DNA of 64,000 nt from an uncultured Planctomycetales bacterium (lineage in GTDB: Bacteria > Omnitrophota > Gorgyraeia > Zapsychrales > JANLHA01): NCBI GenBank assembly GCA_964374105.1, contig CAYJXI010000001.1, forward strand, positions 199,743 through 263,742, written 5' to 3'. Below, in pieces: positions 33,001 through 54,890 of the stretch. The notes beneath the pieces were generated by a model, which saw nothing but the letters and a program-made list of their open reading frames with translations, was not told where the DNA came from and made no database searches. Within the stretch, counting starts at the first letter, position 1; each line of letters begins with the position of its first letter. The position numbers were made by a program, and so were the translations under genes.

Positions 33001-36000
33001 CCCCGCTGGGAATTCCATCTTTGAGGGGAAGCCCAGATTCCCGGAGGATATAAGGCCAGAGGCCTATGTCTTCAGCATTCCTCAGGAAGTGGTAAGAATG
33101 CTTAAACCTGTTTACGATGAATCGGAAAAGCAGAAAGAAGCAGGCGGAAACTTATCTCCCAAAGGAAACAGGGATGGCGCCCATTTTTCAAACGAATGGG
33201 AAAATTGTTTAACCCGCTGGCTTAACGCAAGGGAATTCAAGGAAGTGGCCGAGGAATTGGTCAAAGGACTTAAAGAAATTCCAGGGGCCATCATGCGGCT
33301 TAAACGCTACCAGGACCCCTTATTTAATCTTAAAGCCATCAAGGAAGCGTTGGAACAAATCATTCCTGGTTTCTCTGAACAGATTTACTTGAAAAAGATT
33401 GAAGAAGTGATGACTGACGACACTTGGCAAGTGGTTTATCATGTGGTTTCTCCAAAGGAATCCTTGAGCTTGGGTGAGGCAGATGTTATGACCAATGGCG
33501 CCAGGGCGACTTTACTTTCCGAAATCCGCGACCAAAACGCCTGGGTGGGGGCACAAGAAACAATAGATAAATCGCTTAAATCATTAAAACTGCAAAGAGC
33601 GATTTGGGATGCGAGAAAACATCCTTTGGATGCAACGATTTTGCTCAAAGCCGAAGAACTTTTGTTTGCATTCCAAAAAGAGTTTGGGGAAACTCATTTG
33701 AGTGAAAGGGGAAAGTTGCTGAGCCAGATCAGAGCTGGCCGATATCCTCATCATTCCCGCATCATCCGAAGATTTCGCTGGAAACTTCAAGGGAAAGACC
33801 GAAAGATAGAGGAATCCTTACGATTTTTCCATCGCGGCCGTGAGTTGTGGGGAGAAGAGGTTATTCGTGATGAAGATCGGGCGGACTTCCTTATTGCCGA
33901 GGCTAACTTTAAGGCTTTTAAAAGAGGGAGTTTGACACGCAAAGAACTGGCCTACGCTTTAAGCATATTAGGAAGCGGGAGAGAGGGGAAGTTGAAGCTG
34001 AAACTGCGAGATTTTGTGGTGAGTGCTCTGAGTTTAATTCCTGAGGATCCGCATGCGCTGATCTCAGAAACGGCTTTAAAATTACTTGCTCAATTTCGTG
34101 ACAGCAAGATTCAGGTTGTCTCCTCTGACAAAGGGACATATAGTGTTACGCCCTTTTTTAAACAAGCCCTCCAGTTTCATAACTTAAGTTCTCGGTGTCG
34201 ATATTTATTGCAGCCTTATTGGGAACCAGGCCGCGGCTTGATTCTTTATTGGATCTCTAATAAAGAAACGATAGGCTACGATATGACTCCTTATCGTTCG
34301 GCCAGGCCGTCATCGAAATTGAAAGTTATTCCTGCCCATGTTGTTGTTCGTGCCCAAGATTTAAAAACTGCTCGATGCAATCCTGGCCAGCTCTTAACAG
34401 ACCTGGTAAGAGAAGTTATCCCGATTGATCCTCTTAATCCCGATGAAGCAAGCTTAAAGGCATTGGAAGAATCTCTTAAAGATCGGCGCGATCAACCGCT
34501 AAATATTTTTGTTAAAGGAGGTTCTCATACGGTTAAGCCATGGGAAGATAACAATAAATATATCTCCTTCCAGCACCTGAAACCCAACAGCTCCTATACC
34601 ATTATGCCTTACTGGGAACCAAAAAAAGGTTTAAGGACCTTCTGGGTACGGGAGGGAGAAGTAGCTGTTTATGATCTTATTTTGTATCAACGTTTCCGAC
34701 CTGACAACTCACGGGAGTTAATCAGTGCTAAGAAAGAACGCGAGGATAAGCTCCCTGCAGCTGATCCGCAGCGGTTGAAGGTTTCCTTACTTTGCCGCAA
34801 TTGTTTCATCCTGGCCTTGCGGGAACTAGGATGGGATTATCAAAGATTGGAATCTTTTCTGGAGGCTTTAACAGAAGAAGAAAAACTTAAGGATTCCCCC
34901 AACAGTAAAACTCCTTTGATCAAGGCCCAGGCCATTGTCCGCATTTTGGCAGATGAGTTTGAGACAATCGCAAAGGAAATTTTTATGAGGGGGAGCGGGA
35001 CAGATGTGCAAGGGCGTAAAATTTATCATACTTTCTTATCTGAAAAAGGCACACGGGAAGCAGAAGCGTTATTAAACGTTATCCTCGATTCCAGCATGTG
35101 GGTAGGGGCGAAGGCTAATGAGGAAGAAAAAGGGGACAGTCCCCATCCGGGGCATCCGGGGACAGTCCCCACCGATCCCTTAGAAAAAGGACAATATCTG
35201 GTTATCGCCATGGAAACGGAAAGGTTGTCGGAATTAAGTGACCGGATGCGGGAAAGGGCGCTTTCTAAGGAGGGCCGAAAAATTAAAAGAAAAGGGCTTA
35301 ATGAAATTATCGCCTACTACGAGGAACGCAAAGCCGCTTACCAAGAGCTGGAAGAATTTATGAACAAGATCATTGCAATCGAGGACCCGTTTGACATTGA
35401 TTTTGAAAGACTGTTTGAATTGTATGTCCAGATCATTTCCTTTGCCCATATTCGGGCTGGATTCCGTCGGCGCGTGATCGGACCTTTAAGGTCACTGCTT
35501 TTTATGAAATTGCCCGGCTCCATAGCCCTTTTTGTACAACGGTGGATGTCGTTTATTTCCACCGGTCTTTCTGACATCACAACGCACCTCAGGGATGTGG
35601 AGTATAAGGAATTGTTATTTGTCATTGAACTTAATCCCAAGGCGAGAAAGATTATCCTAAGCCAAGAGAGTCCGCTGGTGCTCAAACAATTATCGCAAAG
35701 GGCAAAACCGGTTTATCAGAGTCTGGAGGATTTTGCCTTTCGCTATAAAATTGAACGTAACCAGAATGATGATATGACCAACCCCCTGCCTTTAGAAAAA
35801 CTGTTAAGCAATATCCGAAAAGACCTTGAATCCGGGGAATCCCGCAACCCGATCCCCCTATTGTTTAGCCGGACACCGCAGGGATATGCCTTTGAGTTTG
35901 AGCAGATCGGAAAATGGGTCAGACAGAAAGCGCCTCGTTTTGATGTAGAGGTTTTCCAAAAGATCATGATGATTTCTTGGGAGATGCCGGCCCAGCTCGA

Positions 36001-39000
36001 TAGGGAGCGCCATTGGCAGCATCGTTATCAGAACCAGTTACAGGGAATACTGTCATCGATAGAAAAGCGATTGAAGAAGGCCCGTTTGTTGAGTCAAAGA
36101 CAGAGCGTTTATGACCTTTCTGCGGAGGAATTGCTTAATCTGATTGAGAGGTACCGCCACTTAGACCCCCACCGCGCTAAGGCGGGCCTGCCTGCCGGAC
36201 AGGCAGGGAATCAATTGCCAAAAACAGAGCCGGAGCGGGAAGAGGCGATCCAGCAGGAAATTAGCGGCAATCGACCCCTATTTCTTGAACAGAGTCAATA
36301 CGTTCTCGAGGCAAATAAGGAAGCGAAAGAATTGGTGGGAGAGAAAGATCGGGATATTGTACGATCTTTAGAGCAGATGTCTTCTATGGAAATTCGCGCC
36401 GGGCCGATGCCGAATTTGTGGAGTGTTGTTCGGGAAGTGTCGCTTGTGAAGCGTGAAGCGTTAGGAGAAAAACGAGATACGAGTCCCGCCTCACGGGAGA
36501 CGAGATATGTCCTCCACCTCGATCGATCCCTCTTTGATTCCGCTAACCGCCATGAACTTCTTCTCACCCTCATCCACGAAGCAGGTGTCCTTCTGGGCCG
36601 AAGCGATGAAGACAATGAAAAATTTGCCCAGAAGGTTTTGGGTGATTTTGGTATAGAGAAAATTCATTTGCATTCATTAAAAGATATTGGAAAAGTTGAC
36701 CAATTGGTCAAAAAGATTAAAGAGCTCATTCAAAGTGGCTACTGGAAAAATGTTTTTGAGCTTTTAATGGAACATCTTGGCAAAGATCCAGAAATTGATT
36801 CAAGGTTGATAAGGGATGCTATTGAGTATGCATTCCGCGAGACTGCCTTGAAGTTATATGGGAATTTTATTCCTACCAAATTTATTCAGGCAGCAGGGGG
36901 TTTTCTGTTGAGGCTTACTCGGAAGGCTACAAAAGAAAAAAGGTATGATGTCTTGAGGGCTATCCTGGAACATTATGGGAATTCTTGGTCTAACAAAGAT
37001 TCTGGTGTGAAAAGATTGATTCTCCAAGAAGAGCCAGCCCTGTGGCCACTCCTTTATATTTTCGATATGGTAATTAAAATTTTAAAGAAAGATGATCCAA
37101 CATCTCACCCAGAGATCTTCGAGCATGTTCTTCCTTTCATTATCGATGTATTTCCACCCAAGACACTTTATTGGATTAAAACTCGACGGATTACTAGAGC
37201 ACCAGGATTCATAACATCTGATGATCGATTTGAGTCGAAGGAGAGTCCCTTTGTGCAAAAAATGGTTGAATTGTTTAGTCTGCTTGCTGAAAAGTATCCC
37301 GCTCATCCTTTATTACATTTGGCTTTAGAGAAATACATTGGTCTGCGAGAAAAGGTACAGGAGCAATTACAAAGAAAAAGTAGACTGATGGGGCCGTTTC
37401 GAGCGTTAGCTACATTGTTAGGTTTTAGGAGAGAGGGAAAGTCTTTGGAAATTCAAAGGTCTTTCACACTAACACCTGAAATGCAATCTCTTCTTCCTCG
37501 GATTGAATTGAAACCAGAAGAGATGAATTTAATATTAGATCAGAAAAGAGACATCGAGGAAACAGCGGTAACATTTTTGAAAACATGGGATGATTTTGTT
37601 ACGGCCTTTCAAGTCCTTTATAAGGCTCTACGTGATGAGACCTTGCGGATTTCTTATGATTTTGACGTGGAGGGCCGGCATACCCAAGGAGGGAGAATCA
37701 TTGAGAAAGCCTATCACGAAGGATGGATTCATGATACAGGTTTCGAGGCCTATATTCACCTTCCGGTCGGGATTCAGATACCTTTGAAAAAATGGTCAAG
37801 TATATCTGATTATAATTGGTGGGATGAGTATCATAAGCCTCTACGATATTATTTGAATTATTCTTTAGATATGGAAAGAATTCAGGAATTATTCCAAGGG
37901 CTCACATTCTCTGGTCTAAAGATAGGGGATCGTCTGGCCGAAGACGAAATTTGGGATGAGGGAATTATATGGGCTATGCTGGACAATAAGTTTAATGAAC
38001 AGTTAAATACAGTTCGCACTTTGAGAGAAGAATTAATTCGGTTAGCTATCAAACTCGAAGCCGTCAGTACAGGTCAGACAGAGGAAGAAATACGGAATCA
38101 ATACGATGGGAGTGCGTTGGTTAGAAAATGGCTTAAGAAATTTGGGATTCATGTTCGCGAGGCTAATAATCTTGATTTTAAGAAATTGACTTTTGATAAA
38201 TCTGCACAAACTGAAGAATCTTCAAAAGGTGATGAACAATCTGAGGATGATCGTGAATTCACCGATCCCCACCGCGCCAAGGCGGATAACAATCTGCCGA
38301 AAGATCCGGTTGAGCGCGAAGAGGCGATTCAGAAGGAAATCGCCGGTACTCAGAAATTGACGGGCTCCCAAAGGCAATACGTACTCAACGCTATCTGGCA
38401 AGCTCTGAAACTGGCCAAAGAAGATCAAGAAATCGTCCGCTCGTTTGAAGAGATGGTCAAAATGGAAATCCGCGCCGGGCCGTTTAGGTATATTTGGGGC
38501 ACCATTCGTACATTGTACAGCGTACTTCGTACGTCGAATGAACCGGGAACTTTACGAAGTACGATGGACGAAGTACGATGGACGTTATTCCTCGATCAAT
38601 CCCTCCTTGATCCTGTCAATTATCGCGAGCTTTTAATCACTCTCATTCATGAAGCCGGAGTCCTTCTGGGAAGAAGTGATGAAGATAACGAAAAATTCGC
38701 GCAACAAGTCATCCCCATTTTAAGCCAACCGGCCCAAGAACGGATCCTTGAGATGGTTCGAAAGTACTTCCTCTATCGAAAACCATTGAAGGATGAAGAA
38801 ATTATCCAACTTATCGGGTTTATTTCAGCTCAAATTCAGGTTCCTGTTGAAGAGCATGGCAAAGCTGTTCGTGAAATGCTGGCAGAGATAGTCAGGCATG
38901 ATCTTTTTGAACAAAACAGGTTCAATAGGATTTTAGAATTGGCAGGAATTTGGTACGAGCATTTTTATGTATTTTCAACTGAAGCGCAGGAGCCGAGAAC

Positions 39001-42000
39001 AAGAGGTTTAGAGTCAGTGCTTTTTGTGGACCAGCCAGCAGCCAAAAAAGAGTCAGTCAATCCTATCAAAGCAGCGCGTACTTTGAAAGAAAAAGGCGTC
39101 TCTTTAAAAGGATTAGAGCGAATGATTGGTTATTCCCGATTCGTTGTAGCTGTAAGGCAAAAGGAAACAATCGAACATCACAGTTCTTACCATGTCAAAG
39201 AACGAGAAAGAAAGAGCCAAGGCGATTTAAAACGATTGGAAGTCGTTCGATATATTTACAAAGCTGAAAGGTTTAAAGACGTAGAGATTGGCTCGTTAGA
39301 ATTGGGATTAACATCTGAAGGGATTGCTCTGGTCGCAGGTACGGTGTTCAATCAATTAGAGCGTTACCGGCAATTCAAGCCTGACCGGTTCAAAATTATT
39401 TTAGACACAATGAATGAAGTGTTTAAGATTTTTGTCCCAGAGGAAGGGATTTACGGCGAGGCATATCTCCGTTCAATGGGAGAGGTCATTGATCAGTTGT
39501 TAAAGCAAAGGGATTTCGGAAAAGAAGTCAACGACATCTTGGCAGGCGTGGCTTTATGGAATAAAGAGCTGCGTGGGCGGTTTAATCAATGGCTCGAGTA
39601 TCAAAAAGAACCCACAAAATATGTTAATCCAATCCTTGCTCTTGCCGCTCGGAATATTCCTGTATCTCAGCTGCAAGCTGTCATCAATTATTTAAGGATC
39701 AAACTGGGAGAAGTTCAGAATATCTTCTTCTTATTTTTAGAGCTGCGAGCGCAGAGTGATTCAGGTATTACAAAATCGCAAACAGCCAAAGAGCAGATGG
39801 ATGCATTCGAAGGAACTTCGCAGGCGGAAATTGAATTTGTCAAAGCCTTATTGGCAGCCATACAGGCACGCAAGCAAGAAGGAGACAATCTTGAATCCCG
39901 TGGATCCCCCGATCCCCACCGCGCCAAGGCGGGGAATCATCTGCCGGAAGATCCGGTGAAACGCGAGGAGGCGATTCAGAAGGAGATTGCTGGGAATCAG
40001 AAGATCCCCGATAAGGTAAGAGAATATGTGGTACGAGTTATCAGAGAAGCCCAAGGGATCGTGGGCAAAAAGGACCGAAAAATCGTCAGGGCCCTGGAGG
40101 AGATGGCCTCCATCGAGATCCGCGCGGGACCGTCGTTGAACTTGTGGGGAGTTATCCGTAATAGGTCAAAGGTCAAAGGTCATAGGTCAGTGGAAAATCC
40201 TATGAGCTATGACCTATCAGCTATGAGCTCCCCAGCTATCAGCTCTTCGGCTGAAGTTAACATAAAAAGGGACAGTCCCTTTTTATGTCAACCTGTTCTC
40301 TTCCTCGACACTTCCCTCCTTGATCCCGATAACCACCAGGAACTTCTCATCACCCTGATCCACGAAGCTGGCGTGCTCTTGGGCCGCGGCGACAAACGGA
40401 ATGAACGATTTGCCCAGCGGCTCTTTAAGACCCCCGCGCCTTCCCTGAGCTGGCACGCCTTCAAAACAGAGTTTATAAAGTATCCTTTGAAGAGACAGTT
40501 GTTCATGTTGACAGGTTTCATCACTGAGGTTGTGGGAATATTTCTGGGAAGCCAATTGTTAGTCCTTGCCGGGATAGGGGTCCTTATTCCCTGCGCGGTC
40601 ATCATGGTTCGATCGGCCATCAAACGTGAGGACATGACCCGCACCCTTTTAACCCAATGGATTTTAAAAAATATATATTTGAATGAGTTCTCAAGTCAGC
40701 ATTTGATGGACCTCAACGCGGTGATTCGATTGCTTGCCTCACTTGGGAAATTAAACCTCGAACTTAAAGAAGCGCTTCTCCATGACCTGCTGGAACGCTA
40801 CGCGTTAAGAAAACCAGGAAAATTTAATTTAGATCATCTTGATCAACTGACCCGTCATTTTGAACCGAAGGGATTGGTTCGTTATTTTCTATTTTATTTG
40901 TCGACCCGGCCCAAGGTCGCGGCTCAAGTTCGTTTCATGGTCAAGCAGTGGATAGAAGAGAACAAGCTCTTCCCCTTACATTCCGTCATCAAGAACAATC
41001 TTTCCATCGGCCCCAAAAAGGTTCTGGTGATTCACAACATTGCCGACGGAATGGGGGATGAGTTGATCCGTGTCGGGACATTGGTCCAGGCCTTATTAGA
41101 CTTCAATCCTGAATTAACGGTCACCATTATCACGACTAGAGATTACCTTTATGATCACTCCCGCGTGCGGCTTGATGTCGATGGCGAGCTCAAGGCATTG
41201 GAGCATGATTATGATGTCGTGGTTCATTACTACGACAAAAAACAAAGATTTTCCGATGTATTAGAAAAACGCGTTCAAGATTATCTGCAGACGCACCCTA
41301 AGATATTTCTGTATATTAGAGCCGACAAAGCCACCGATCTGTTTACCTTTTCTGAAGTCATTGTCGATCAGAAAGAGTACGCGGATGAGCTTAAACTCAA
41401 CCAGCCGCGAGGGAATCATCTGGCCTTCTCTAATAATGTCTATGAACCAATCTTTCGGTTTTTGGCTGAATTGGGGATTCCCTTCCGCGTGGGCGAGGAG
41501 GAACCGCAAGGTGAGTCGTTGTGGATTGGGAAACCCAATCCTGAGGCAGAGATTTTTTGGCAGGATGGTCTCAGCGCGTTCCGCAAGTTACAGGGGAGGT
41601 CTCAAGGAGACAATCGGCCGGTTGCCTTATTTATGCCTTTTGGAGGGATGCATCCCAGCAAGGGAATCGATGCTCTTGAGCCTGAGTCTCTCTACCTCTT
41701 CCTCACAATGGTCAGGCACCTCATCAGTAAGGGTTATGACATTATTATTATTCCCAATGGAGAAACGTGGGGATCTTCAGAGATTGCCGTCGCCATTGTT
41801 GAACGGCTTTTTAATCATGAGGAAAAGACGCACATCATCATAGGTCCGGAACCCAGGGAAATCCCCAGAGACCTCAAATATCTAATTTCCTACTCAGACT
41901 ATAATTTATTCTTTGAAGGGGGCATGGTTCATTTAGCCTATCATCTGGGATGTCCGTATCATTTTCTAACGATGCCCGGTTCAGGAGTTTTATCAAAATG

Positions 42001-45000
42001 GACACCCGTGGCCTTTGGTCCCCATCAGAGATTTATCATCTCAATGAGGAATTCTATGGCTCAGTTGGCTGATATGGTCCCCACAATGCTGGAGATCCAT
42101 GAGGAGAAGGAGAAATTTTTTGAAGATCTGTTTGAGGAGGAGGATGAAAAAAAGGACAGCCACTCTGCGGACATTCTCCCCCAAGACCCCCACTGCGCTA
42201 AATCGTGGGCGCGATGGCCGCTCGATAAAAAAGAAAAAGAAACGGCGATTCAAAAAGAAATCAGCGGGAATAAAGTTGTGACGCAAGAACAGAGAGACTA
42301 TGTTATCGGTGCAATACGCGAGGCGCAAAGGTTAACAACGATCGATCAAGAAATTGTCCGGGCGTTGGAAGAAATGGCCCGAATGGAAATCCGCGCCGGG
42401 CCGATGCCGAATCTTTTTGGGCTGGTCCGTGCTCAACGTGATCCTGCCTTTATGACTCGTGTGCTCAATAGACTCAGGAAGCATTCCTATAGTCATTATA
42501 TTCTGCATTTAGATACGACTTTAGGCCAATTCCTCCTTGATCCAGCCAACCGCATTGAACTCCTCAGAACTCTTATTCATGAAGCCGGAGTCCTGTTGGG
42601 CAAAAGCGATCAAAAAAATGAACAATTGGCAAAAGAATTTACCAAACATTTAAAGCCTTCAGCGGAATGGTTGCGCGAGAATTTCCAAAACCGCTGGATT
42701 CATCTTCAACAACCCAGAAGTGTCGCTCTGCCCGGGTTCCAGGGAGTCACTCCTGATCAGATTGATCGTGTTATTGAGCCATTTATTTATGATGCATTGG
42801 ACGGTGGGGCCAAGGAATTAAGATTTGAGATGAAATATGATTTTGATAAAGAGAAAGATGAGGAGAAGTTTGTCATTGATGTTTATGAAAAGGACGGGGA
42901 CAAAAAAGTAGGCTGGGATGATGAGCCTTTTAAGGATGTATCAAAAGGTATGGCTGAAACAGTTAAGAAATTGATTAAAGCCCGACAAGTTGCGCTAGAA
43001 TCTGGCAGTAAATCTCCTATTCCATTGGACCATCGCGAATCTTGGGAGAGTATTTTGGATTCGCTTCGAGGGATTAGGTTCGCGATCCTTCCTGGAGTAA
43101 TAACTTTGCTGGAGGGTGTTTTAACCCATGTGGGAACAGGTGAGCTGGGCCGGGAAATTTATATAGGAGAAAAATTGATTGAGGCGTTAAGCCAACGAGA
43201 CCTGGCGCTTTTGCTATTGGAATCTGCTCGCTACGATGCCCTGCCGCTGGTGATGCCAACAACAGCAATCCAGCATGACAAAATGCTTTTATCCAGGATT
43301 ACAAAAATGATTGGTCATCAGCCGGTAAGGGCATCGGTGAGACAAAAGAGGAAAGGTCCTCAAAGTCAAAGATTTTCCAGCCGCGGCACAAAAGATAAAA
43401 ATAAACTTCTCAATGAACTAGAGGGATTAATCAAGAAGATCGAATCGCGGGATGAGGGTGGTTGGAGACGATTTCGAGATTTTGATTTGTCCAGGGTCGA
43501 AAGAATTGTTCGGGAACTGCAGGAGAGTTTTGAGTTGGGTGTAGCGATGGCCAATCGTCTTGCCCGGGTGATTATTGATTTGACTGAAAGTCCAAATATT
43601 TTCGATTCTCTTGGCTCGTTAATCTGGGTGTTGCTCATGTCTCGGGAGCCTATGGACCCCTATTTAGTGAACCAATTGGCAAAAATCTCGTTAGAAAAAG
43701 TTCGGGGGGTTGATCATCACTTGGGGTATTCCAGCAGGTGGGGACCCAATCATCTTTATCATTTATTTTTGATGGCGGAGATTCATCATGCTGTATTAGA
43801 CATGGATACCGTAGAGGAGATTCTGAAATATGGTTTAGAGGATATCACGACTGGATCTTTCCGATCGGAAGTTTCTGAGTTCTGGCATAGGGTGCCGGTC
43901 ACGATTGGGACTTTGCTTTCCGGGCAGAGATGGTTTTCATCCGCATTTTTGGATCATTGGATTGAAAAGTGGAATGGAGACTTTAAGGATGTGATTTACA
44001 TGGAAGATCAGTTTGACGATATCCTGCAGAGCAATCAACCTATGACTGAACAGCAAATCAAAATGATTCAGGAAAAACTTTTGAAAAAAATTAAGAGAAG
44101 AGATCTGAGCTATAACAATTTGTACACCCTCGGTGCTCTTTTGGGCAGCGGCAGGCCACTTTATGAAGAGCAGCAATTTATCGCCAATGCGATCAAGGCG
44201 GTCAAACAACATCTTGATGAGATCGAGGCTGAAGGCCAGGAACTGCATTTTAGTTACTTAGTCTTCACCGTGGGCCTGCTCAAGAATCAGCGAGATCTTT
44301 CTCAAGAGGATCAAGATTATTTTGAGCGGTTGCTTTGGAAGATTTGGGGGAAGCATGCCGGCCATTATTGGCAAGATGGCCGTTTCGTCGATGCCTTTTC
44401 ACCTTATCTCTATGGATTGCAGGGAAAGATCAGGGATGATGTGCCTTTGGGACTGGAGGCTTTTAAGAAAAGGTTGGGTCCTCATTGGAGAACTGCCTTC
44501 AAGATTGCGAATCAAGTTTTCTTCAAGCTCAATCTTTCAGGATTGGCCATCGGTTCGCAGAGTTTGATTAAACTGGAATTACTCAAGGAGGCTCTTGGTC
44601 AAGGCCATCTTGACGAACAGTTTATTGAGAGGATTAAAAAGGAATTCATTCCATCCTTGCGGGTCATTGAGAAGGTGACCGATGTTTATCCAACGGTTGG
44701 GATCGAGACTAAAAAATTGATCCGTAATCACGATGATCTGATCACGGTCTCCTGGCAGGTAGCGATTATCAACTTTTTATCCGAGATCCAATTCCCGACA
44801 GGTTTAGGCAAGTCCTATGCTGAACTAGAGCATTCGGAACTGCGGATCCCTCCTTCGGTTTATCCCATATTCCGTCGGCTTTTGAAAGAAATCAAGCAAG
44901 TGCTGTTTGTGGAAGATGAAAAGGAGTTGGATTTCTATCATACCGCTGTTGCCGGCGATTACGCCGATGAAAGCCGGTTCCTTTTATCCAGCTTCTTTTT

Positions 45001-45727: not shown

Positions 45728-46228
45728 GCCCATGACCCGCACTTTGACCAAATCCGCAAAAATGCCTTTAATGGTGATGATCCCCAAAGATCACAAACCC
45801 AATCTCCCAACGACCCCCACCGCGCGAAGGAGGGCGACCGTGTTGAGACAGACCATCCTTTAAGACCAATCAGCCAGCTGGGCGCCGTTTTGTGGCGATT
45901 TTATCAGCCTCGGGTGGCATGGGGATTTTTAAGAATTGCCTTTTCAACGACCGTGGCGAATTACCGGCACCTGCGCCATCACGGTATTCGCGGGGCGCCA
46001 CTGGGACGAATCCAAGCCGCACTCCGCGCGCCCTTCTTCAAAACCGCCGAACGTATTGACGGCCTGCCGCGGTGGAATATCGACCGCCATCTCCTCCCCG
46101 AAGATATCCAGCGCCTCGTTGACATCCACGAATCGCAACCCTGCTGCCGCTTGGGTAACCGCGAGATGGCGATAACCATTCAGAAAAGGGAAAGCAGACA
46201 ACGATCTAAAGAAAATTCAGCAGATGTC
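45728..46228 (+). other. Junction between the two giant ORFs. The single in-frame TAG (45725-45727) is followed by 54 stop-free in-frame codons that include a DPHRAKEGDR motif copy (45812-45841), then a ~400-bp GC-rich (~60%) block, before AT-rich ORF2 proper (an in-frame ATG is at 46229).
   Basis: Frame arithmetic: positions 2, 45725, 45812 and 45890 are all 2 mod 3. The GC-rich block shows ORFs on both strands in the provided track. Confidence 0.6.
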
Positions 46229-49200
46229 ATGGGATCCCTGCAATTATATGTTTTGAAAAAGTTTCTCAAATTCATTCTGCCTCTCTTGATTTTGGCGGTC
46301 CTGAATCATATTTTTGCGGTCATAACGCTGCAATCCTCTGATCAGTTATGGGCGGCGATTGATACGGCTGAGGAGCTGGTTCAGGCCCGAGAACACTTTG
46401 AGCATTTTCCATTTCACTTTGAGAAAGGTATTGAGTTTATTATAGGTAATACTCCTTTGCCTGACATGCCCTTCCCATATCCGCTTATTACTTATGCTCC
46501 ACTGCAGCGGCACATTATTACGTCGCTTTTTACTTTAATTCCGGTCCCGTTTATTTATTGGGCGGTTGGCTTCATCAAATCACCAGATCTGAAAAAGCCA
46601 ATAAAATTATTCAGGCTATTCAGTCAACTTTGGTGGGTGGGAACTTTTCTCCAGGTTATTGACATGATCAAATTTGGGGGAGTTTTTGATTCATTCTGGG
46701 GCTTCTCCTTGGGTGATTTATTGATCTCTATAGGATATATAGGAACTGTTCTTGGTCTCTTGTCCCTATTACCGGAATTGATTTTTGATTTGCCCTTGTT
46801 ACTCTGGGTTAAATTAAGAGGGATCATAAATTCGTTACGAAAAAGAATTCGGGCTAACAATCAGGACGTTAAAAATATTAACAGCGTCCATTTTTCATCA
46901 GAAAAAGCAGCAGAAGAAGAAAAAGGTGATAGTTCTCATTTTTCAACTGATAGAAATGAACCCCAAACCCCGAACGATGAACGACCGCCCCAAGACCCCC
47001 ACCGCGCTGAACCAGGGGATAAAGCATCGCAAGATCCTACTCGAGCTAACCGGGTTTTACAGGAGGATGAGCGGTTTAAGTTAGAGGAGATTTTGCGCAA
47101 ATACGAGTTGGCTGTCCGTGAGGCACAGGAAACGCAGGAGAATTTAAAGACCGCGTTCTTGATTCGTTTAAGAAACCAAAAGGAATTTCTCGAAGAAGCC
47201 CAAATCCTCAGTCAGACGAAGTTAGTGCAGGCACCCGCAGCGATGGTCAAGGAAATCCTGACGCTGCAGTTTGAGGCTGCAGAGCCTTTGGTGATTTATG
47301 CTTTGAATCTCCAACTCGAAGAGCAGGATTACATCCTTCTTCTTCCCAAGGCGCGGGAGGATGAAAGGGAAGCCCAGAAATCGATTCTGCATGAGGTCAA
47401 GGCGATTCATCACCGTGGACAAGCGGATGCACAGACCATCCACGAAGAGGCCCTGCGCTTTGAGTCTTTGCTAGAGGACGAGGCAGAGCAAGAGGAAGAT
47501 GAGATTTATAAAGTTGAGAAGATTGGAACCGGAATTTTCTGGAAACGCCTGACACAGAATTGGGAAGAGGCGCTGAAGGAAATTGAAAAATTACAGAAGC
47601 GTTCTTGGTTCCAGAAGGCCCTGCAGGAATTCCGGGTCTATCAATCGCAGATTTTCCGTATGGGAAGCATTTTGACGTTGCTCGTGTTGGGGGGTGTGGC
47701 GATAACCTTTGGTTCGTGGGCCGCCCTCTTGGGAGGGATCCTCCTTTTATTGGTTATTGGGGAAATGGTGTTTGGGTTAGTGGAGAGCTTGGGAGAACTG
47801 TTGTACAGCACCCCGTATGACATCCAAGGAGTCGAAGGCCGTTTGGCTGTCCCTGCCATCTCGGAAAAAGATCTAAAAATTCTTTACGCTATGGAAGGCC
47901 AAGAGTTACTCTTGGTCAACACCGGGCAGTTTGTCCTGCCGCGGATTTCTTTCTACCGCGCCTGGCGCCACAGCTTCAAAGGATGGAACGGACCGCGGAT
48001 GTTTGAGGTGCCGCTCACCTCTTCGGATCACGGGATTCTTATGTTTCTATCCTATGCTTTGTTCAGCCTGATTGTTCCGCTGTTGATTCAGGTGGCGATT
48101 GGCATTTTTCATCTCGGGCAGGAAAACCTGATGGGAATCATTCGTTTTGGGTTTAGTGTCTTGGTCGTCCTAGCCCCTTTCAAACTCTTTATGGAACTAG
48201 CCAAGATGCATAAGGAAGTGACGATTTATGCCAGACGAATCGTTTACCTTTGCGAATTGGCAAAAAGATCTTCCGGGACCTTGCGCGTTAACGAGGCGAT
48301 TTATGAAGATATAGAGAAGTTTAAGCAGGAAACGGGCTGGAAGGTCTTATGGACAGATCATCCGTATCTTTTGGTTTATCCAATCTTGGCTAGTCAACAG
48401 CTGGTTCTAAATATCGGTTGGATCGTGGCGGGCTCTGAGCGGATCGATGATTACCGCATTCCTTATATGAGAGGGATCTTGCGCTCGGTCCGTCAGGCTA
48501 TCCCTAAGGGCTTGCGAGAAGAAATAGAAAAACAAAAACAGAGGCTTGAGATTGAAAGACTTCTTCAAGAGGTCGAAAGGTTAATGGATGTCGAAGACAT
48601 CCGCACATTATATGAAGAACAAATTAGTGAACCTAGAAAGAAGTTGGAGGCATTGAAGGAACAAGATTTGGAAAGCGGCTGGTGGGAAGCACGAATCAAT
48701 GCCGCCTTGGCGGCCCTTGATCTCATTGATGCCGCCCATTCGGGTACTAACGAAGAATTCCAAAGGGCAGAAAAACGTTTCCGCGATTCCGTGCGTATCG
48801 GCTTACAGTTGGATGAATGGATTGATCAGGGTTTAAGAATTATAGAAGATCGAAAGAGGACAACCTATACTCTAGGTGAAGAAGATTCTGCTCTCAGGGA
48901 TAAGGAGGCAATAGATTCAGAGGATCAAGAAACCCAACAACGAGATAATTCCCATCAAGGAGAATCGAATAATGATTTGCCAGATGAAAACAGAGATGCT
49001 AAAAAAGAGGCGAGTGCCTCATTCCCAGATGAGTCACAGGCCAGGGGACACAAGCCACCGCCTCAAGACCCCCATCGAGCCAAGACGGGGAAGAGGCCAA
49101 CGGAAAAGCAGATTCGAGAGGATATAAGAGGGGCAAGGGTCATGGGGCAAAGGTCAAGGGAAAAGATTAAGCAGGCGGTTAATCAAGTGATTGATCTTGT

Positions 49201-52200
49201 ACGTCAGGAAGATACGAATGTGGCGGTCGCCCTTGAACAAATCCGCGACACCATCGAAATCCGCGCTGGGCCGTTTGAGTATATTTGGGGGACTGTAAGA
49301 AAGTCACAAGTCACAAGTCATCCTTCGACAGGCTCAAGATCCCTTGCGAAGGAATCCCGAGCAAAGTCGAGGGACAAGCCACAAGCCACCGATTACATCC
49401 TTTACTTCGATGAATCCTTTTTGAACAACCCCGCCCTCCACACTGAATTACTTCTGACTCTTATTCACGAAGCCCGCGTCATCGCTTATCCGAAAAGTTT
49501 GGATGAGGACAATGAGTCCTTTGCCCAAAGGGTTTTTAAAAAATTAAATGCCTCTGTTGATGGGGGAAACTTACTGCAAAATTGGTGGGATCGGATTTGT
49601 CGTCTCTGTCACCAATTTGGAATTTATTTTCTGTTGGGTGGCCTTCTGATACTGGGATTAGCAACAGTGGGAATTGTTGTCCTTTATTTTTATCTTTTCT
49701 TTGATCTAGTAGGATATTTTGGGAATGAGCCGTTTAGTTACGGGGGGTTTAGAAGTTATGTTGCCAGCTTAGTTGTCTTGGGGATCATTGATGTCTTTTT
49801 AGTCAAGGTCGTAACATTTTTCCGCAGATCTCATGGCGAGAGGGAAGAGGAAAGAATCCCACTTGGATATTCTAAAGATGAAGTCGATGAAAGGGATGTC
49901 TTAACACGTTATCTTGTCATTGGGGGAGGCATAACCCTCATTAGTTTACCATTTATTTTTTATGCTAATTGGGGGTATATTGGGCAAGGGATCACAACGG
50001 CTTTACAGTATTTTCTAAGTTGGAAGCTGCATTATCTCTTGGGAATTTTGCTGATCGTTTCCTTTCTTTATCATCTTTATTTGAAATTCACTGACGAATA
50101 CGATATAAACGGCTTTGGAACGAAAATTTACCGGGCGGTTGTTGCGACTCTCTTTGCCCCCATTTGCGAAGAGGTCATTTTCCGTTTTATCTATTTCCAA
50201 GTGTCTTTGTGGTTTTGGACGAGTGTCTTTGGATTTTTCCAGCCTTTCAATTATCCGATTCCCTTTTTGGGCGTATCGATTGGCTTTGATCTTCCTTTAG
50301 GAGTCTTTATTGCCATTGCCAATAATGCGGAATTATTTTTCAAAGCCCATGGACGGGCCAAGTGGTTTCATCATTGGCTGATGGGGGTGGTGGCCTCTTA
50401 TGCCTATTATCAGACAAATTCCTTGATTGTTCCGATCGTTATCCATTTCATTTGGAATGGGATCGCCAGTGTGTTTTCCCTGATCATGAATGCGGTCTTT
50501 CCTTTGGAGTTAAGCATTTTTTCCGACCGATCGAAAGAAGAAAAGAAAGTGAAGAATGTCTTCCCTTTGAAAAATTTTGAATGGAAAAATATCATTGCCA
50601 GATCAATATTCCTCATCTCCATTTATTTTGGGATTGTTTCGTTAATGAATATTGCTCATTTTATTTCTTATCTTTTTATGATCAGCCTGCCGATTTTTAT
50701 TCATTTTATCTTTTCTATGAAAGGGAAAGGTATTTTTCTTACTATCGAAAGACAAAAATGGACGAATCTAAAACGATTGGGGTTAGGATTATTACTTTTC
50801 ATTATGATCTTCCCAGGTTTGTTTTATTCTTTAGATGGTCTGTTGGCGTTTTTCCATCCCCTTTGTTTAAAGTTTCTTAACGTCATTGCTTATGTCATTT
50901 TGGGGTTATTGATTACCCTCGTATGTCTTCAGCCGTTTGCTCAATTTCTTTACAATATCACTTTCAATCCTAAAATCAAAAAGGCACCTTGGAGTTTAGC
51001 ACGTTTTGTAGTTTATACCCTTGTCCCCACATTTTTGTCTTTGCCGATTATTTATCTTTCCCTATTTATCGATTTACAAAAAAATGTCTTTGATTGGATA
51101 TTCAATATCCTTTTAATCGCAACGATCTTTGGGATATTGCGCATGACGGATTATTTTCTTTATCGTTTCTTTTATCGACCGTTTAAAATCAAAGCCCTGT
51201 TTATGTTTTTATTGCAATTTTTGGCCATAGTCTTTGTCATGACTCAACTTTCTGTTAAGCGAGCCCTTAAGGATGAGGCGGTTTTGCAGGCCTTACCCTC
51301 ATCACCGTTAAAAACTTTTGAGGTGGCTCCTTTGGCTATCTTAATTGCGGCGGTTATTTCTCTCATCATCATTGTCAGTTATATCCATTCCTTTGAAACC
51401 AAAAGATTTCATAAAAGGGACCTCAAGGCCCTAGAAATATCTGCAATCAAAATTAATCCTCAACAATTTTCCTCAGAAATGAAAGACATCGCTTTTCATC
51501 AAATGGATATGCCATCTGTTCTAGCCTTTATCTTGATGAGTTCCAATACTATTGAGGAAGTGGAAAAAAAGTTCGCTGCTTTAGGAATTTTAAAGGATTA
51601 TCTTTATCCCCAAAGTCATCTTGACCGAAGAAAACTCGTTAAGATCATTCAAAGGCTCTGGCTAGAGGTTTATGACTTTCTACCATTTCAATACCCAATG
51701 GCCTTTAAAGAAAATAAACTGCCAACCGCTGAGGTTATATTAGGGGACTTAAAGATCGTCCTTCATGGATTTGCGCATATTCCATCTTACGAAAGACCAT
51801 TTCAGCAGACAGTTGATGAACTTATCCAGAAAAATTTATCGGTTTATTTTGAAGCCGGTATCAAACAGATGATGGGAGGGATTCAATACGGTTATGCATT
51901 AAGCGATCAGTTCGGTTCCACCACCAAGATCACGCAAAATTATTCTTGGCCGAGTCAATGCTATTTGATGATTAAAAATTTTTTAATGATGGTCATAATG
52001 GTTGTGGATATTTTTATCTCAACCATTAAAGCCCTGCTCCATTTGGAGGGAGAGGCTCCCATCAAGTTGTTTTCTACCCGCAAGACAAAGAGTGTTAAAG
52101 AAACGATTCCCCTATTTATCCAACAACAACTTCCCCAGCCTTTGGATTGGACGTGGGAGCTTTATATTGACCGCAATGAGACTTATGATTGGGTAGGGAT

Positions 52201-52798
52201 TCTACGGTCGCTGGCGATGTTAAAAGAAATGGTGGACGATGCCAAAGAACAAGGTTACCCAGAAGTCCATTGGATTGGTGGGTTTGGGCATCAGTTTCAA
52301 ATGAGCTGGGCCGTTGACCATCGCGATGAAATAGGAAAGTTGATTGTGGATCCCGATAACTATTATCCACAAAAGGAATTTGATTTAAAAGAGTTTAAGT
52401 TTGAGATCCTGTCATTTCTGGAAAATCTAAGACAAATGAGAGAACAGGCCCAGAAGGAAGTTTCCTTAGATAACTTTCAAAATGCTTTAGTCAAGGCCTT
52501 GCCAAAGGAAATTGCTCAGGAACTCATTCGGGTTTTAAATGTCAATCTGTTAAAGAATATCCGCAAGTTTCGGGGAAAGGACGAACATTGCTTTTTAGTT
52601 TGTGAGGTTGTGAGGATTCTCAAATTGATTTATGGCCAGGATAAATTAGAGAAAATTTATGTCAAGGAGATTTTAAAAGAAGGCAAGGAGGTCTATTACC
52701 TTGTCGTGAGTGAAGAAGAATCAAAACAAGCCAATGATGGCAAAGCCCTGGCGCTTCTTGATATCGATCATGGGCATTCTTGGATTGGGGGAAAATAA
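45890..52798 (+). CDS. Second giant membrane protein (2,302 aa as called from TTG 45890; an alternative ATG is at 46229). Many TM helices, one partial and one complete copy of the DPHRAK...IRAGP...LIHEA module, and a CPBP/CAAX-type intramembrane protease motif set. Ends TAA.
   Basis: Long stop-free frame. Module copies at 46994 (partial) and 49067-49540 (complete, with STR inserts ggcaagggtcatggggcaaaggtcaagg at 49121-49155 and agtcacaagtcacaagtcat at 49302-49322). Extensive hydrophobic helices 46230-46850, 47640-48200, 49600-51400. Confidence 0.8.
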   Translation: MWRFYQPRVAWGFLRIAFSTTVANYRHLRHHGIRGAPLGRIQAALRAPFFKTAERIDGLPRWNIDRHLLPEDIQRLVDIHESQPCCRLGNREMAITIQKRESRQRSKENSADVMGSLQLYVLKKFLKFILPLLILAVLNHIFAVITLQSSDQLWAAIDTAEELVQAREHFEHFPFHFEKGIEFIIGNTPLPDMPFPYPLITYAPLQRHIITSLFTLIPVPFIYWAVGFIKSPDLKKPIKLFRLFSQLWWVGTFLQVIDMIKFGGVFDSFWGFSLGDLLISIGYIGTVLGLLSLLPELIFDLPLLLWVKLRGIINSLRKRIRANNQDVKNINSVHFSSEKAAEEEKGDSSHFSTDRNEPQTPNDERPPQDPHRAEPGDKASQDPTRANRVLQEDERFKLEEILRKYELAVREAQETQENLKTAFLIRLRNQKEFLEEAQILSQTKLVQAPAAMVKEILTLQFEAAEPLVIYALNLQLEEQDYILLLPKAREDEREAQKSILHEVKAIHHRGQADAQTIHEEALRFESLLEDEAEQEEDEIYKVEKIGTGIFWKRLTQNWEEALKEIEKLQKRSWFQKALQEFRVYQSQIFRMGSILTLLVLGGVAITFGSWAALLGGILLLLVIGEMVFGLVESLGELLYSTPYDIQGVEGRLAVPAISEKDLKILYAMEGQELLLVNTGQFVLPRISFYRAWRHSFKGWNGPRMFEVPLTSSDHGILMFLSYALFSLIVPLLIQVAIGIFHLGQENLMGIIRFGFSVLVVLAPFKLFMELAKMHKEVTIYARRIVYLCELAKRSSGTLRVNEAIYEDIEKFKQETGWKVLWTDHPYLLVYPILASQQLVLNIGWIVAGSERIDDYRIPYMRGILRSVRQAIPKGLREEIEKQKQRLEIERLLQEVERLMDVEDIRTLYEEQISEPRKKLEALKEQDLESGWWEARINAALAALDLIDAAHSGTNEEFQRAEKRFRDSVRIGLQLDEWIDQGLRIIEDRKRTTYTLGEEDSALRDKEAIDSEDQETQQRDNSHQGESNNDLPDENRDAKKEASASFPDESQARGHKPPPQDPHRAKTGKRPTEKQIREDIRGARVMGQRSREKIKQAVNQVIDLVRQEDTNVAVALEQIRDTIEIRAGPFEYIWGTVRKSQVTSHPSTGSRSLAKESRAKSRDKPQATDYILYFDESFLNNPALHTELLLTLIHEARVIAYPKSLDEDNESFAQRVFKKLNASVDGGNLLQNWWDRICRLCHQFGIYFLLGGLLILGLATVGIVVLYFYLFFDLVGYFGNEPFSYGGFRSYVASLVVLGIIDVFLVKVVTFFRRSHGEREEERIPLGYSKDEVDERDVLTRYLVIGGGITLISLPFIFYANWGYIGQGITTALQYFLSWKLHYLLGILLIVSFLYHLYLKFTDEYDINGFGTKIYRAVVATLFAPICEEVIFRFIYFQVSLWFWTSVFGFFQPFNYPIPFLGVSIGFDLPLGVFIAIANNAELFFKAHGRAKWFHHWLMGVVASYAYYQTNSLIVPIVIHFIWNGIASVFSLIMNAVFPLELSIFSDRSKEEKKVKNVFPLKNFEWKNIIARSIFLISIYFGIVSLMNIAHFISYLFMISLPIFIHFIFSMKGKGIFLTIERQKWTNLKRLGLGLLLFIMIFPGLFYSLDGLLAFFHPLCLKFLNVIAYVILGLLITLVCLQPFAQFLYNITFNPKIKKAPWSLARFVVYTLVPTFLSLPIIYLSLFIDLQKNVFDWIFNILLIATIFGILRMTDYFLYRFFYRPFKIKALFMFLLQFLAIVFVMTQLSVKRALKDEAVLQALPSSPLKTFEVAPLAILIAAVISLIIIVSYIHSFETKRFHKRDLKALEISAIKINPQQFSSEMKDIAFHQMDMPSVLAFILMSSNTIEEVEKKFAALGILKDYLYPQSHLDRRKLVKIIQRLWLEVYDFLPFQYPMAFKENKLPTAEVILGDLKIVLHGFAHIPSYERPFQQTVDELIQKNLSVYFEAGIKQMMGGIQYGYALSDQFGSTTKITQNYSWPSQCYLMIKNFLMMVIMVVDIFISTIKALLHLEGEAPIKLFSTRKTKSVKETIPLFIQQQLPQPLDWTWELYIDRNETYDWVGILRSLAMLKEMVDDAKEQGYPEVHWIGGFGHQFQMSWAVDHRDEIGKLIVDPDNYYPQKEFDLKEFKFEILSFLENLRQMREQAQKEVSLDNFQNALVKALPKEIAQELIRVLNVNLLKNIRKFRGKDEHCFLVCEVVRILKLIYGQDKLEKIYVKEILKEGKEVYYLVVSEEESKQANDGKALALLDIDHGHSWIGGK
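50100..50480 (+). other. CPBP (CAAX protease/bacteriocin-processing, Abi-like) intramembrane metalloprotease domain in ORF2
   Basis: Motif 1 FAPICEEVIFRFIYF (EExxxR), then HHWLMGVVASYAYYQ, then motif 3 VIHFIWNGIASV (HxxxN). All lie in hydrophobic helices. Confidence 0.55.
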
Positions 52799-53008
52799 AA
52801 AGTGGGGATTCTGTGTTGAACACGGAATGACAGTGGGTGTTTAATAAATTGTCACTCCTGTCTCCCATTTGTTATTTTTTAAGTTTTTAAGAATTGTTTG
52901 TTCAAATATTCCTCTTCCATTTTCACAACCGTTGGCCGGCCGTAAGGCAGGGTAAAAGTCGTAACCCGCGCTGGGTTTAAGACCATGAACCCTATGCGGT
53001 TTACGGGA

Positions 53009-54868: not shown

Positions 54869-54890
54869 TATCCGCGGTCATCTGTGCCGT

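Follow-up and report, generated by a model that had tools for sequence, protein, structure and literature searches.

The window analysed here is a stretch of 64,000 nucleotides (nt) from an uncultured Planctomycetales bacterium (GTDB lineage Bacteria; Omnitrophota; Gorgyraeia; Zapsychrales; JANLHA01), positions 199,743 to 263,742 of contig CAYJXI010000001.1 in GenBank assembly GCA_964374105.1; coordinates below are positions in this window. Two very long open reading frames (ORFs), ORF1 and ORF2, follow each other on the + strand in the same frame with a single TAG between them, and the DNA just after the TAG forms an island of high guanine-plus-cytosine (GC) content. A sequence-only reading had placed this island at 45840-46210 and proposed a captured foreign fragment, a structured RNA or a linker kept open in frame. 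We conclude with high confidence that the island encodes a protein domain in the frame shared by ORF1 and ORF2. The fuller interpretation, in which this domain belongs to one giant frame, is carried on a GC-rich cassette and is separated from the upstream part by the TAG as the sole interruption, is likely.

Features of the ORF1/ORF2 junction

ORF1: 2..45724, + strand; 15,241 codons with Peptidase_M50, HTH_8, methyltransferase and Trypsin_2 domains (Pfam), mostly unannotated.
In-frame TAG: 45725..45727, + strand; the sole stop between ORF1 and ORF2, where the related protein P0001 has AGA (Arg).
Post-TAG codons: 45728..45811, + strand; 28 codons that continue the homology of the ORF1 C-terminus and then encode a hydrophilic linker, with no in-frame ATG, GTG or TTG.
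Conserved domain, the body of the GC island: 45851..46171, + strand; about 107-115 amino acids, DHPLRP ... ANYRHLRH ... GIRG ... FFKTAERIDGLPRWNIDRHLLPEDIQRLVDIHE ... CRLGNRE.
TTG called mechanically as the ORF2 start: 45890..45892, + strand; codes for a conserved Leu inside predicted helix 1 and is not a credible start.
Antisense ORF of 85 amino acids: 45944..46201, - strand; a by-product of the codon-complement frame, with a ratio of nonsynonymous to synonymous substitution rates (dN/dS) of about 1 and no Pfam match.
Basic linker, AT-richer (AITIQKRESRQRSKENSADV): 46172..46228, + strand; joins the domain to the membrane segment.
ORF2 as publicly annotated: 46229..52798, + strand; begins at ATG 46229, 2,189 amino acids, opening with hydrophobic helices (from 46238) and including an Rce1-like/CPBP protease domain.

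The GC content is 0.596 over 45800-46170 and 0.561 over the span given in the sequence-only reading, against a window mean of 0.428. The segment 45804-46103 ranks first among all 300-bp windows of the 64 kb (0.60, z = 3.84), ahead of runner-up peaks of 0.563, 0.56 and 0.557. The compositional island is thus real, and its described location is correct, with the TAG that ends ORF1 (45725-45727) on one side and the hydrophobic helix that opens ORF2 (from 46238) on the other. Both strands carry small ORFs across it, as had also been described: 55 and 79 amino acids on the + strand, and 50, 85 and 66 on the - strand.

The composition of the island is that of coding sequence with a shifted codon usage. 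GC at codon positions 1/2/3 is 0.67/0.48/0.64 in the island and 0.51/0.33/0.45 in the host gene, i.e., the same coding rank order with all three values raised; GC at third positions (GC3) is accordingly 0.64 vs. 0.45, and codon usage is atypical. Over 45728-46228 the ORF frame has no stop, the other two + frames have 3 and 10, and the - frames have 4-5; the absence of stops from 167 codons is improbable for shuffled island sequence (P = 0.0019). The - strand island ORFs lie in the exact codon-complement frame and are expected there because TTA, CTA and TCA codons are rare (1.9% in the island vs. 4.4% in ORF1).

The island encodes a conserved protein domain

When 45728-46897 was translated in the ORF frame and used for an exhaustive HMMER search, it matched internal segments of four proteins (P0003, P0004, P0005 and P0007; E 4e-22 to 5e-5). 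The match in P0003 (5,293 amino acids) covers residues 3675-3794 with E 4e-22, and the other proteins are 592, 2,578 and 1,789 amino acids long, respectively. A scan of species-representative genomes recovered two close copies, L006 and L007, at 75% and 70% amino acid identity, both in the metagenome-assembled genome (MAG) CAYJUK01, labelled uncultured Planctomycetales, and confirmed that two distant homologues come from Candidatus Omnitrophota MAGs. The domain frame is stop-free over 2,191 codons in L006 and 754 in L007, which places the domain within long ORFs. Motifs conserved in the alignment are (D/N/T)HPLRP, ANYRH, G(I/V)RG, F(F/Y)KTA, GxPxWxI(N/D), LLPxD and HE. A first metagenome scan for the domain returned nothing and a second just an orthologue of P0003; a word-index protein search with the domain alignment gave no matches.

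Differences among the three close copies (the window copy, L006 and L007) follow codon structure, with 18/7/41, 17/11/39 and 18/12/38 changes at codon positions 1/2/3 in the three pairs. In the sense frame dN/dS is 0.11-0.18. This codon-aware comparison settles the question in favor of coding sequence. The 82-147 amino acid antisense ORFs that overlap the domain in all three copies could be taken for a conserved gene on the opposite strand, represented in the window by the 85-residue ORF, but their stops are removed by the GC-rich codon usage of the sense strand, dN/dS in that frame is about 1.0, and no family match was found; a real antisense gene is extremely improbable.

AlphaFold2, run on the segment 45839-46198 with a five-sequence alignment, gives a model of five helices and a beta-hairpin (predicted local distance difference test score 88.5, predicted template-modelling score 0.82). 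Pfam searches with four island reading frames returned no match, and Foldseek against the PDB found no relative (best E 3.5, template-modelling score about 0.2). The segment is therefore best described as an unannotated, previously undescribed conserved domain family, with a predicted mixed alpha/beta fold. Among the earlier proposals the linker kept open in frame comes closest, since the segment is indeed open in the shared frame, although it is a conserved folded domain rather than a linker. The sequence-only reading had named, as a refutation of its view, ordinary protein homology continuous with ORF2 together with typical codon usage. Half of this holds: the homology is present in the ORF2 frame, but typical codon usage is not.

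The domain is not confined to giant genes, as it is found in P0004, an ordinary-sized 592-residue VWA protein. In P0004 (L002, 21-1799) it lies between the VWA domain and hydrophobic helices, and PilZ and ABC-transporter genes are adjacent. The layout of L007 and P0004 matches that of the window, with the domain followed by a basic linker and hydrophobic helices (a Met precedes the helices in L007), so the island and the beginning of 'ORF2' belong together as a unit. In the giant protein, the domain is probably a juxtamembrane module on the cytoplasmic side.

One giant frame interrupted by a TAG

ORF1 and ORF2 share a frame, the TAG is the sole stop in the translation of 45650-46300, and the combined frame comprises at least 17,597 codons (15,241 + 2,356). 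For the junction region, the databases gave a single relative, P0001, a protein of 781 amino acids from NCBI MAG GCA_041643015.1, which is 46% identical to the C-terminus of ORF1 in a BLASTP alignment that runs past the TAG. Aligned to P0001 in fixed register, the 17 residues after the TAG have a BLOSUM62 score of 27, compared with -14.7 +/- 8.2 for shuffles (p about 1e-5). The residues flanking the TAG (window 45650-45790) consist of two copies of the motif (F/Y/L)-x-(K/Q)-(I/M)-(R/K)-x-x-A-(F/L)-x-x-(D/E)-P, which is also duplicated in P0001 (residues 500-545); MAFFT aligned the post-TAG piece to the upstream repeat of the same short motif.

The start of ORF2 had been called uncertain, and rightly so. 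Upstream of TTG 45890 lie the codons for the conserved HPLRP motif (45854-45868) and for the initial half of predicted helix 1. In L006 and in L007 this TTG is matched by a CTT Leu codon, and from the TAG up to 45890 the frame offers no ATG, GTG or TTG. With HPLRP upstream of every possible start, a complete domain can be made only by translation through 45725, and the TAG would then be an assembly error, a recent nonsense allele or read through. Further downstream, an in-frame ATG at 46166 lies ahead of ATG 46229. A Shine-Dalgarno comparison left the choice of start uninformed, as no gene of the window has a clear Shine-Dalgarno sequence. The product from ATG 46229 is 100% identical to the public protein P0002 (2,189 amino acids; HMMER), and a contig index searched for exact matches to ORF2, begun at either ATG 46229 or TTG 45890, returned no record. 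The peptide HPLRPISQLGAV is encoded within 45728-46228, upstream of TTG 45890.

On balance we favor the interpretation that ORF1 and ORF2 are one gene now, or were until very recently, apart from an error or a young allele. The TAG itself would be an error of assembly or sequencing, or else a nonsense allele of recent origin; programmed read-through is less likely. If so, the public annotation wrongly splits one frame of about 17,600 codons into two genes and starts ORF2 at 46229.

Several observations weigh against this interpretation or against parts of it. The public annotation starts ORF2 at ATG 46229, and TAG is the normal stop of two other genes of the window, both downstream. Another assembly of the same population (GCA_947085705.1, contig CAMTXN010000015.1, L016) is 99.994% identical to the window, with 1 mismatch over 17,777 bp; it is the only other public one, and it terminates at window position 46224, with the TAG outside its coverage. 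The population is also present in runs ERR3478686 and ERR4904391. In the window copy of the domain, 4 of 10 private changes fall at columns conserved in distant homologues, against 1 of 11 in L006 and 0 of 15 in L007 (Fisher estimate about 0.015, a weak signal); this excess hints at relaxed constraint, and thus at a TAG that may be real and not very recent. Finally, neither Pfam and NCBIfam searches with the domain family nor a PDB sequence profile search gave a match.

In an alternative account the TAG would be genuine and fixed, with ORF2 an independent gene from ATG 46229 or TTG 45890 and the island a decaying relic of a former fusion, untranslated or partly translated. In addition to the annotated start, the use of TAG as a stop elsewhere in the window and the private changes at conserved columns (4/10 vs. 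1/26 in the other two copies together), two weak terminator-like hairpins at 45883-45934 could be cited for this alternative. The hairpins, however, are at chance level (2 vs. 1.2 +/- 1.1), and a promoter scan found no + strand promoter-like site. The 167 post-TAG codons hold no stop or frameshift, the total of private changes in the window copy is not raised (10 vs. 11 and 15), and a start at the TTG would delete the HPLRP motif and half of helix 1. A fixed TAG is unlikely, if still a serious alternative.

Programmed read-through or recoding of the TAG, yielding a product of 15,241 amino acids and another of about 17,600, would explain why the frame is kept, why the downstream domain is intact and why homology continues across the stop. 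But there is no stop upstream of the cassette in L006 or L007, nor at the equivalent site of P0001; ARAGORN found no tRNA or tmRNA in the window, suppressor and Pyl tRNAs included; and no structure lies beside the stop, the GC-rich part beginning about 85 nt downstream. We consider read-through very unlikely, and continue with a single gene carrying an erroneous or young TAG as the preferred interpretation.

Contig CAMTXN010000015.1 ends, at 46224, exactly where the GC island stops on its 3' side, which suggests that the cassette region breaks short-read assemblies, via repeats or a drop in coverage.

GC-rich cassettes and their header motif

Header motif DPHRAKEG (GACCCCCACCGCGCGAAGGAGGGC): 45812..45835, + strand; DNA similarity to L006 and L007 begins here on the 5' side, and the motif heads an unrelated module elsewhere in the gene too.
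Second module, about 155-175 amino acids, five copies in the giant frame: 36164-36660, 38264-38725, 39911-40440, 42185-42655 and 49067-49550.

The high GC content of the island is not forced by its amino acid sequence, as the domain has the GC content of its host gene in four distant homologues (z -0.2 to 0.7). The close copies resemble the window, with domain GC of 0.61 vs. 0.46 for the host in L006 and 0.60 vs. 0.47 in L007, and domain GC3 of 0.65-0.69 vs. 0.43-0.50. On these comparisons, high GC is a trait of a sub-family of DNA-conserved cassettes that lie in otherwise unrelated giant genes.

BLASTN similarity between the window and L006/L007 extends from 45811/45812, at the header GACCCCCACCGCGC.AAGG (DPHRAK), to near 46172. 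The header has 7 in-frame + strand copies in the window, compared with 0.08 expected, and it also precedes the second repeated module, DPHRAKAG...EIRAGP...LIHEAG, in five copies; several copies are at other GC peaks. The second module reads DPHRAKAG ... EIRAGP ... LLxTLIHEAGVLLGRSDEDNEKFAQ, shows a moderately high GC content (0.46-0.55) and matched nothing in Pfam or NCBIfam. The segment 1800-2250 of L006 is a copy of it (75% DNA identity) in an unrelated giant ORF of another MAG, and this module with the same header is the only DNA similarity between L006 and the window beyond the island. The presence of two header-led modules in both L006 and the window indicates that GC-rich, header-delimited cassettes are common to otherwise unrelated giant ORFs. 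The possibility that the island domain is itself a divergent copy of the DPHRAKAG...EIRAGP...LIHEAG module was rejected as unsupported (hhalign Prob 0.1%, E 0.47).

The sequence-only reading had considered the island a possible captured foreign fragment, and its atypical composition and GC3 do stand. In the strict form of this idea, the domain was captured recently from a genome of about 60% GC and has not yet ameliorated, which would account for GC of 0.60 and GC3 of 0.64 in a host gene at 0.43 and 0.45, for homology edges that are sharp at the header motif, and for a composition that the domain does not need. Terminal repeats and mobility genes are lacking, however: the terminal inverted or direct repeats around the island are chance-level 10-12-mers only, no mobility genes or target duplications were found around it, and a viral contig scan with the DNA core gave no match. 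No donor was found. Every known homologue is from one kind of giant-gene lineage, and the nearest ones are equally GC-rich islands in hosts of about 46% GC. Outside the core described below, synonymous sites are saturated among the close copies, so these are old and yet still GC-rich. Recent capture is improbable on this evidence, and we retain the GC-rich cassette, shared within the lineage, as the better description.

Two domain types that are unrelated to each other have the same 24-nt header and a GC content well above that of their hosts, and each is found in otherwise unrelated giant genes of different MAGs. Conceivably, the GC-rich segments that begin with DPHRAK are domain cassettes, mobile and in frame, for which the header and the 96-nt core would serve as recombination signals at the nucleic-acid level, and the header perhaps also as an Asp-Pro cleavage site. 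This proposal is speculative and we give it little weight. If it were true, giant bacterial genes would be built and remodelled via header and core signals in a manner analogous to exon shuffling, and cleavage at the header would free modules from a polyprotein. Cassettes of this kind may also explain why short-read assemblies break in giant genes, the independent assembly ending at the island edge.

A core with almost no synonymous change

Core AALRAPFFKTAERIDGLPRWNIDRHLLPEDIQ: 46016..46111, + strand; 96 nt in which the three close copies hardly differ at synonymous sites.

Between these copies, synonymous divergence (dS) is 0.05-0.14 within the core, compared with 1.7-2.5 outside it. The core contains 22 consecutive codon-identical codons (permutation p < 1e-5), and codons are identical at 27/30, 28/30 and 30/31 of its amino acid-identical sites (90-97%), compared with 42-46% of such sites outside. 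No suppression of synonymous change was seen in the core against distant homologues. L006 and L007, which come from the same MAG, are most alike in the core.

This synonymous-site-frozen core points to ongoing recombination among cassettes. Cassette copies would exchange sequence by gene conversion, leaving the core near-identical at synonymous sites, while GC-biased conversion, or slow or incomplete amelioration of an originally GC-richer module, would keep GC3 high. We offer gene conversion as a tentative, quite possible explanation of both the core and the GC content; the close copies number three, so that gene conversion and selection at the nucleotide level are inseparable, a limit that tells against our account.

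The alternative is a cis-acting nucleic-acid element superimposed on the coding sequence, either the whole island or the 96-nt core, which might be a structured RNA, a site of recombination for cassette insertion or a signal in translational control. Such an element would account for near-zero synonymous change in 46016-46111 when the three copies are saturated elsewhere, and each copy retains an 8-bp complementarity between header (CCACCGCG) and core (CGCGGTGG). The bases in these pairs do not vary, though, and are hence uninformative; the covariation term of RNAalifold on the three copies is +7.0, a penalty, with many broken pairs; and single-sequence folding of the island shows no excess stability over shuffles (z = -0.83 on the + strand, +1.08 on the - strand). 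Rfam at permissive thresholds gave two sub-threshold chance matches, both outside the island. These results, together with substitutions that track codon structure, speak against the structured RNA suggested earlier. The lack of synonymous constraint against distant homologues and the particular likeness of the two copies from one MAG, as gene conversion predicts, also disfavor a cis-acting element in general, to which, a lineage-specific function of the core included, we assign a low probability. Gene conversion among coding cassettes is thus the account that we prefer. The case has a wider bearing, as GC-rich patches in AT-richer genomes are often interpreted as structured RNA or foreign DNA.

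Other repeats and neighboring genes in the window

ORF1 carries GC-rich palindromes in frame at 24116-24147, 29870-29901 and 23862-23893, and at 17903-17944 and 19268-19309. They include a perfect 32-nt palindrome (AAAGGTGATCCCGCCAAGGCGGGATCACCTTT, peptide KGDPAKAGSPF) and a 42-nt exact repeat (GGCGGCCCCCGCCAAGGCGGGGCAGGCCGC..., peptide GGPRQGGAGRWPWM). Palindrome matches number 8 on both strands, with two palindromic variants counted on each, compared with 0.02 expected. The palindromes share the core CCCGCCAAGGCGGG, whose occurrence in two different reading frames suggests an element at the DNA or RNA level.

A 35-nt hairpin-like repeat, CCRCRYWGGGT..GACCATGAACCC...GT, occurs in tandem in ORF1 (29951-29985 and 29987-30021) and once in the intergenic region after ORF2 (52966-53000), so that an element of intergenic type is also present in frame in coding sequence. 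A further repeat, 'WVGAK..EEEKGDSP', with the palindrome GGGGACAGTCCCC, is found at 32153-32199, 35099-35145 and 46892-46938; two of its copies, 2.9 kb apart, are 94% identical over 47 nt. At 15881-16426, a 273-nt unit is tandemly duplicated (71% identity) and encodes a segment resembling a helix-turn-helix (…HP(Q/E)WLK(Y/F)YLFEG.S…). Directly downstream of the giant gene, homologues of mutL and mutS occupy 53009-57467 on the - strand (Pfam annotation of the identical locus L011).

Comparison with known systems

A minimal zincin (SprT/WLM/DUF45-like) consists of a strand and an HExxH helix. The island segment W-x-I-(N/D)-x-x-L-L-P-x-D-x-x-x-x-(V/I)-x-(I/L/V)-H-E resembles the edge strand and active-site helix of such enzymes, and the tail of the second module (...LIHEAG) is similar. 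A zincin-like metallopeptidase is nevertheless not supported, as the island motif is HESQP with no second His, and there is no Pfam, NCBIfam or PDB match.

The junction resembles genes split by a nonsense codon or a base-call error in having two ORFs in the same frame, one stop and homology across it. It differs from typical split genes in its size (17.6 k codons) and in a downstream part that opens with a domain for which there is no independent initiation.

Rickettsia palindromic elements, described by Ogata and co-workers in 2000, are reportedly repeated DNA inserted in frame in protein genes. Like them, the window segment is multi-copy, conserved at the nucleotide level, compositionally distinct and in frame in unrelated ORFs, and short GC-rich in-frame palindromes occur elsewhere in the window gene. 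Unlike them, the island is a protein domain that has distant homologues of normal GC content, dN/dS well below 1 and a confident predicted fold, and it is neither palindromic nor flanked by terminal inverted repeats.

The GDPH motif in VWD domains undergoes Asp-Pro autocleavage (PMC10880436). The header holds the same D-P-H tripeptide at module boundaries, which is a lead only; no VWD fold surrounds it, and the preceding Gly is absent in most copies.

Another parallel is with the Archaeovorins, giant multi-domain membrane proteins of Omnitrophota (West-Roberts et al. 2023, bioRxiv 10.1101/2023.11.21.568195; bioRxiv 10.64898/2026.06.07.730766). According to passages of the former paper, two adjacent giant genes were merged after correction of an assembly error, and proteolytic processing has been proposed for Omnitrophota giant proteins in the parts of this literature that we searched. 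The passages searched make no mention of the island domain, of the DPHRAK header or of compositional cassettes. The window ORF is like the Archaeovorins in exceeding 15,000 codons, in its many hydrophobic segments, in its embedded peptidase and enzyme domains and in being mostly unannotated, and distant relatives of the island domain are found in MAGs labelled Candidatus Omnitrophota. It is unlike them in that the MAG closest for the island domain is labelled uncultured Planctomycetales, and in that the domain also occurs in the 592-residue VWA protein. The HEAT/TPR/glycosyltransferase/SecA-helicase set of the Archaeovorin type has no Pfam match in ORF1 or ORF2 at E <= 1e-5; the domains found are Peptidase_M50, HTH_8, methyltransferase, Trypsin_2 and the Rce1-like/CPBP protease. 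The presence of protease domains and the cleavage suggested in the passages searched make it plausible that the giant protein is a polyprotein. Taken as a whole, the giant frame fits the multi-enzyme, membrane-threaded giant proteins of Omnitrophota.

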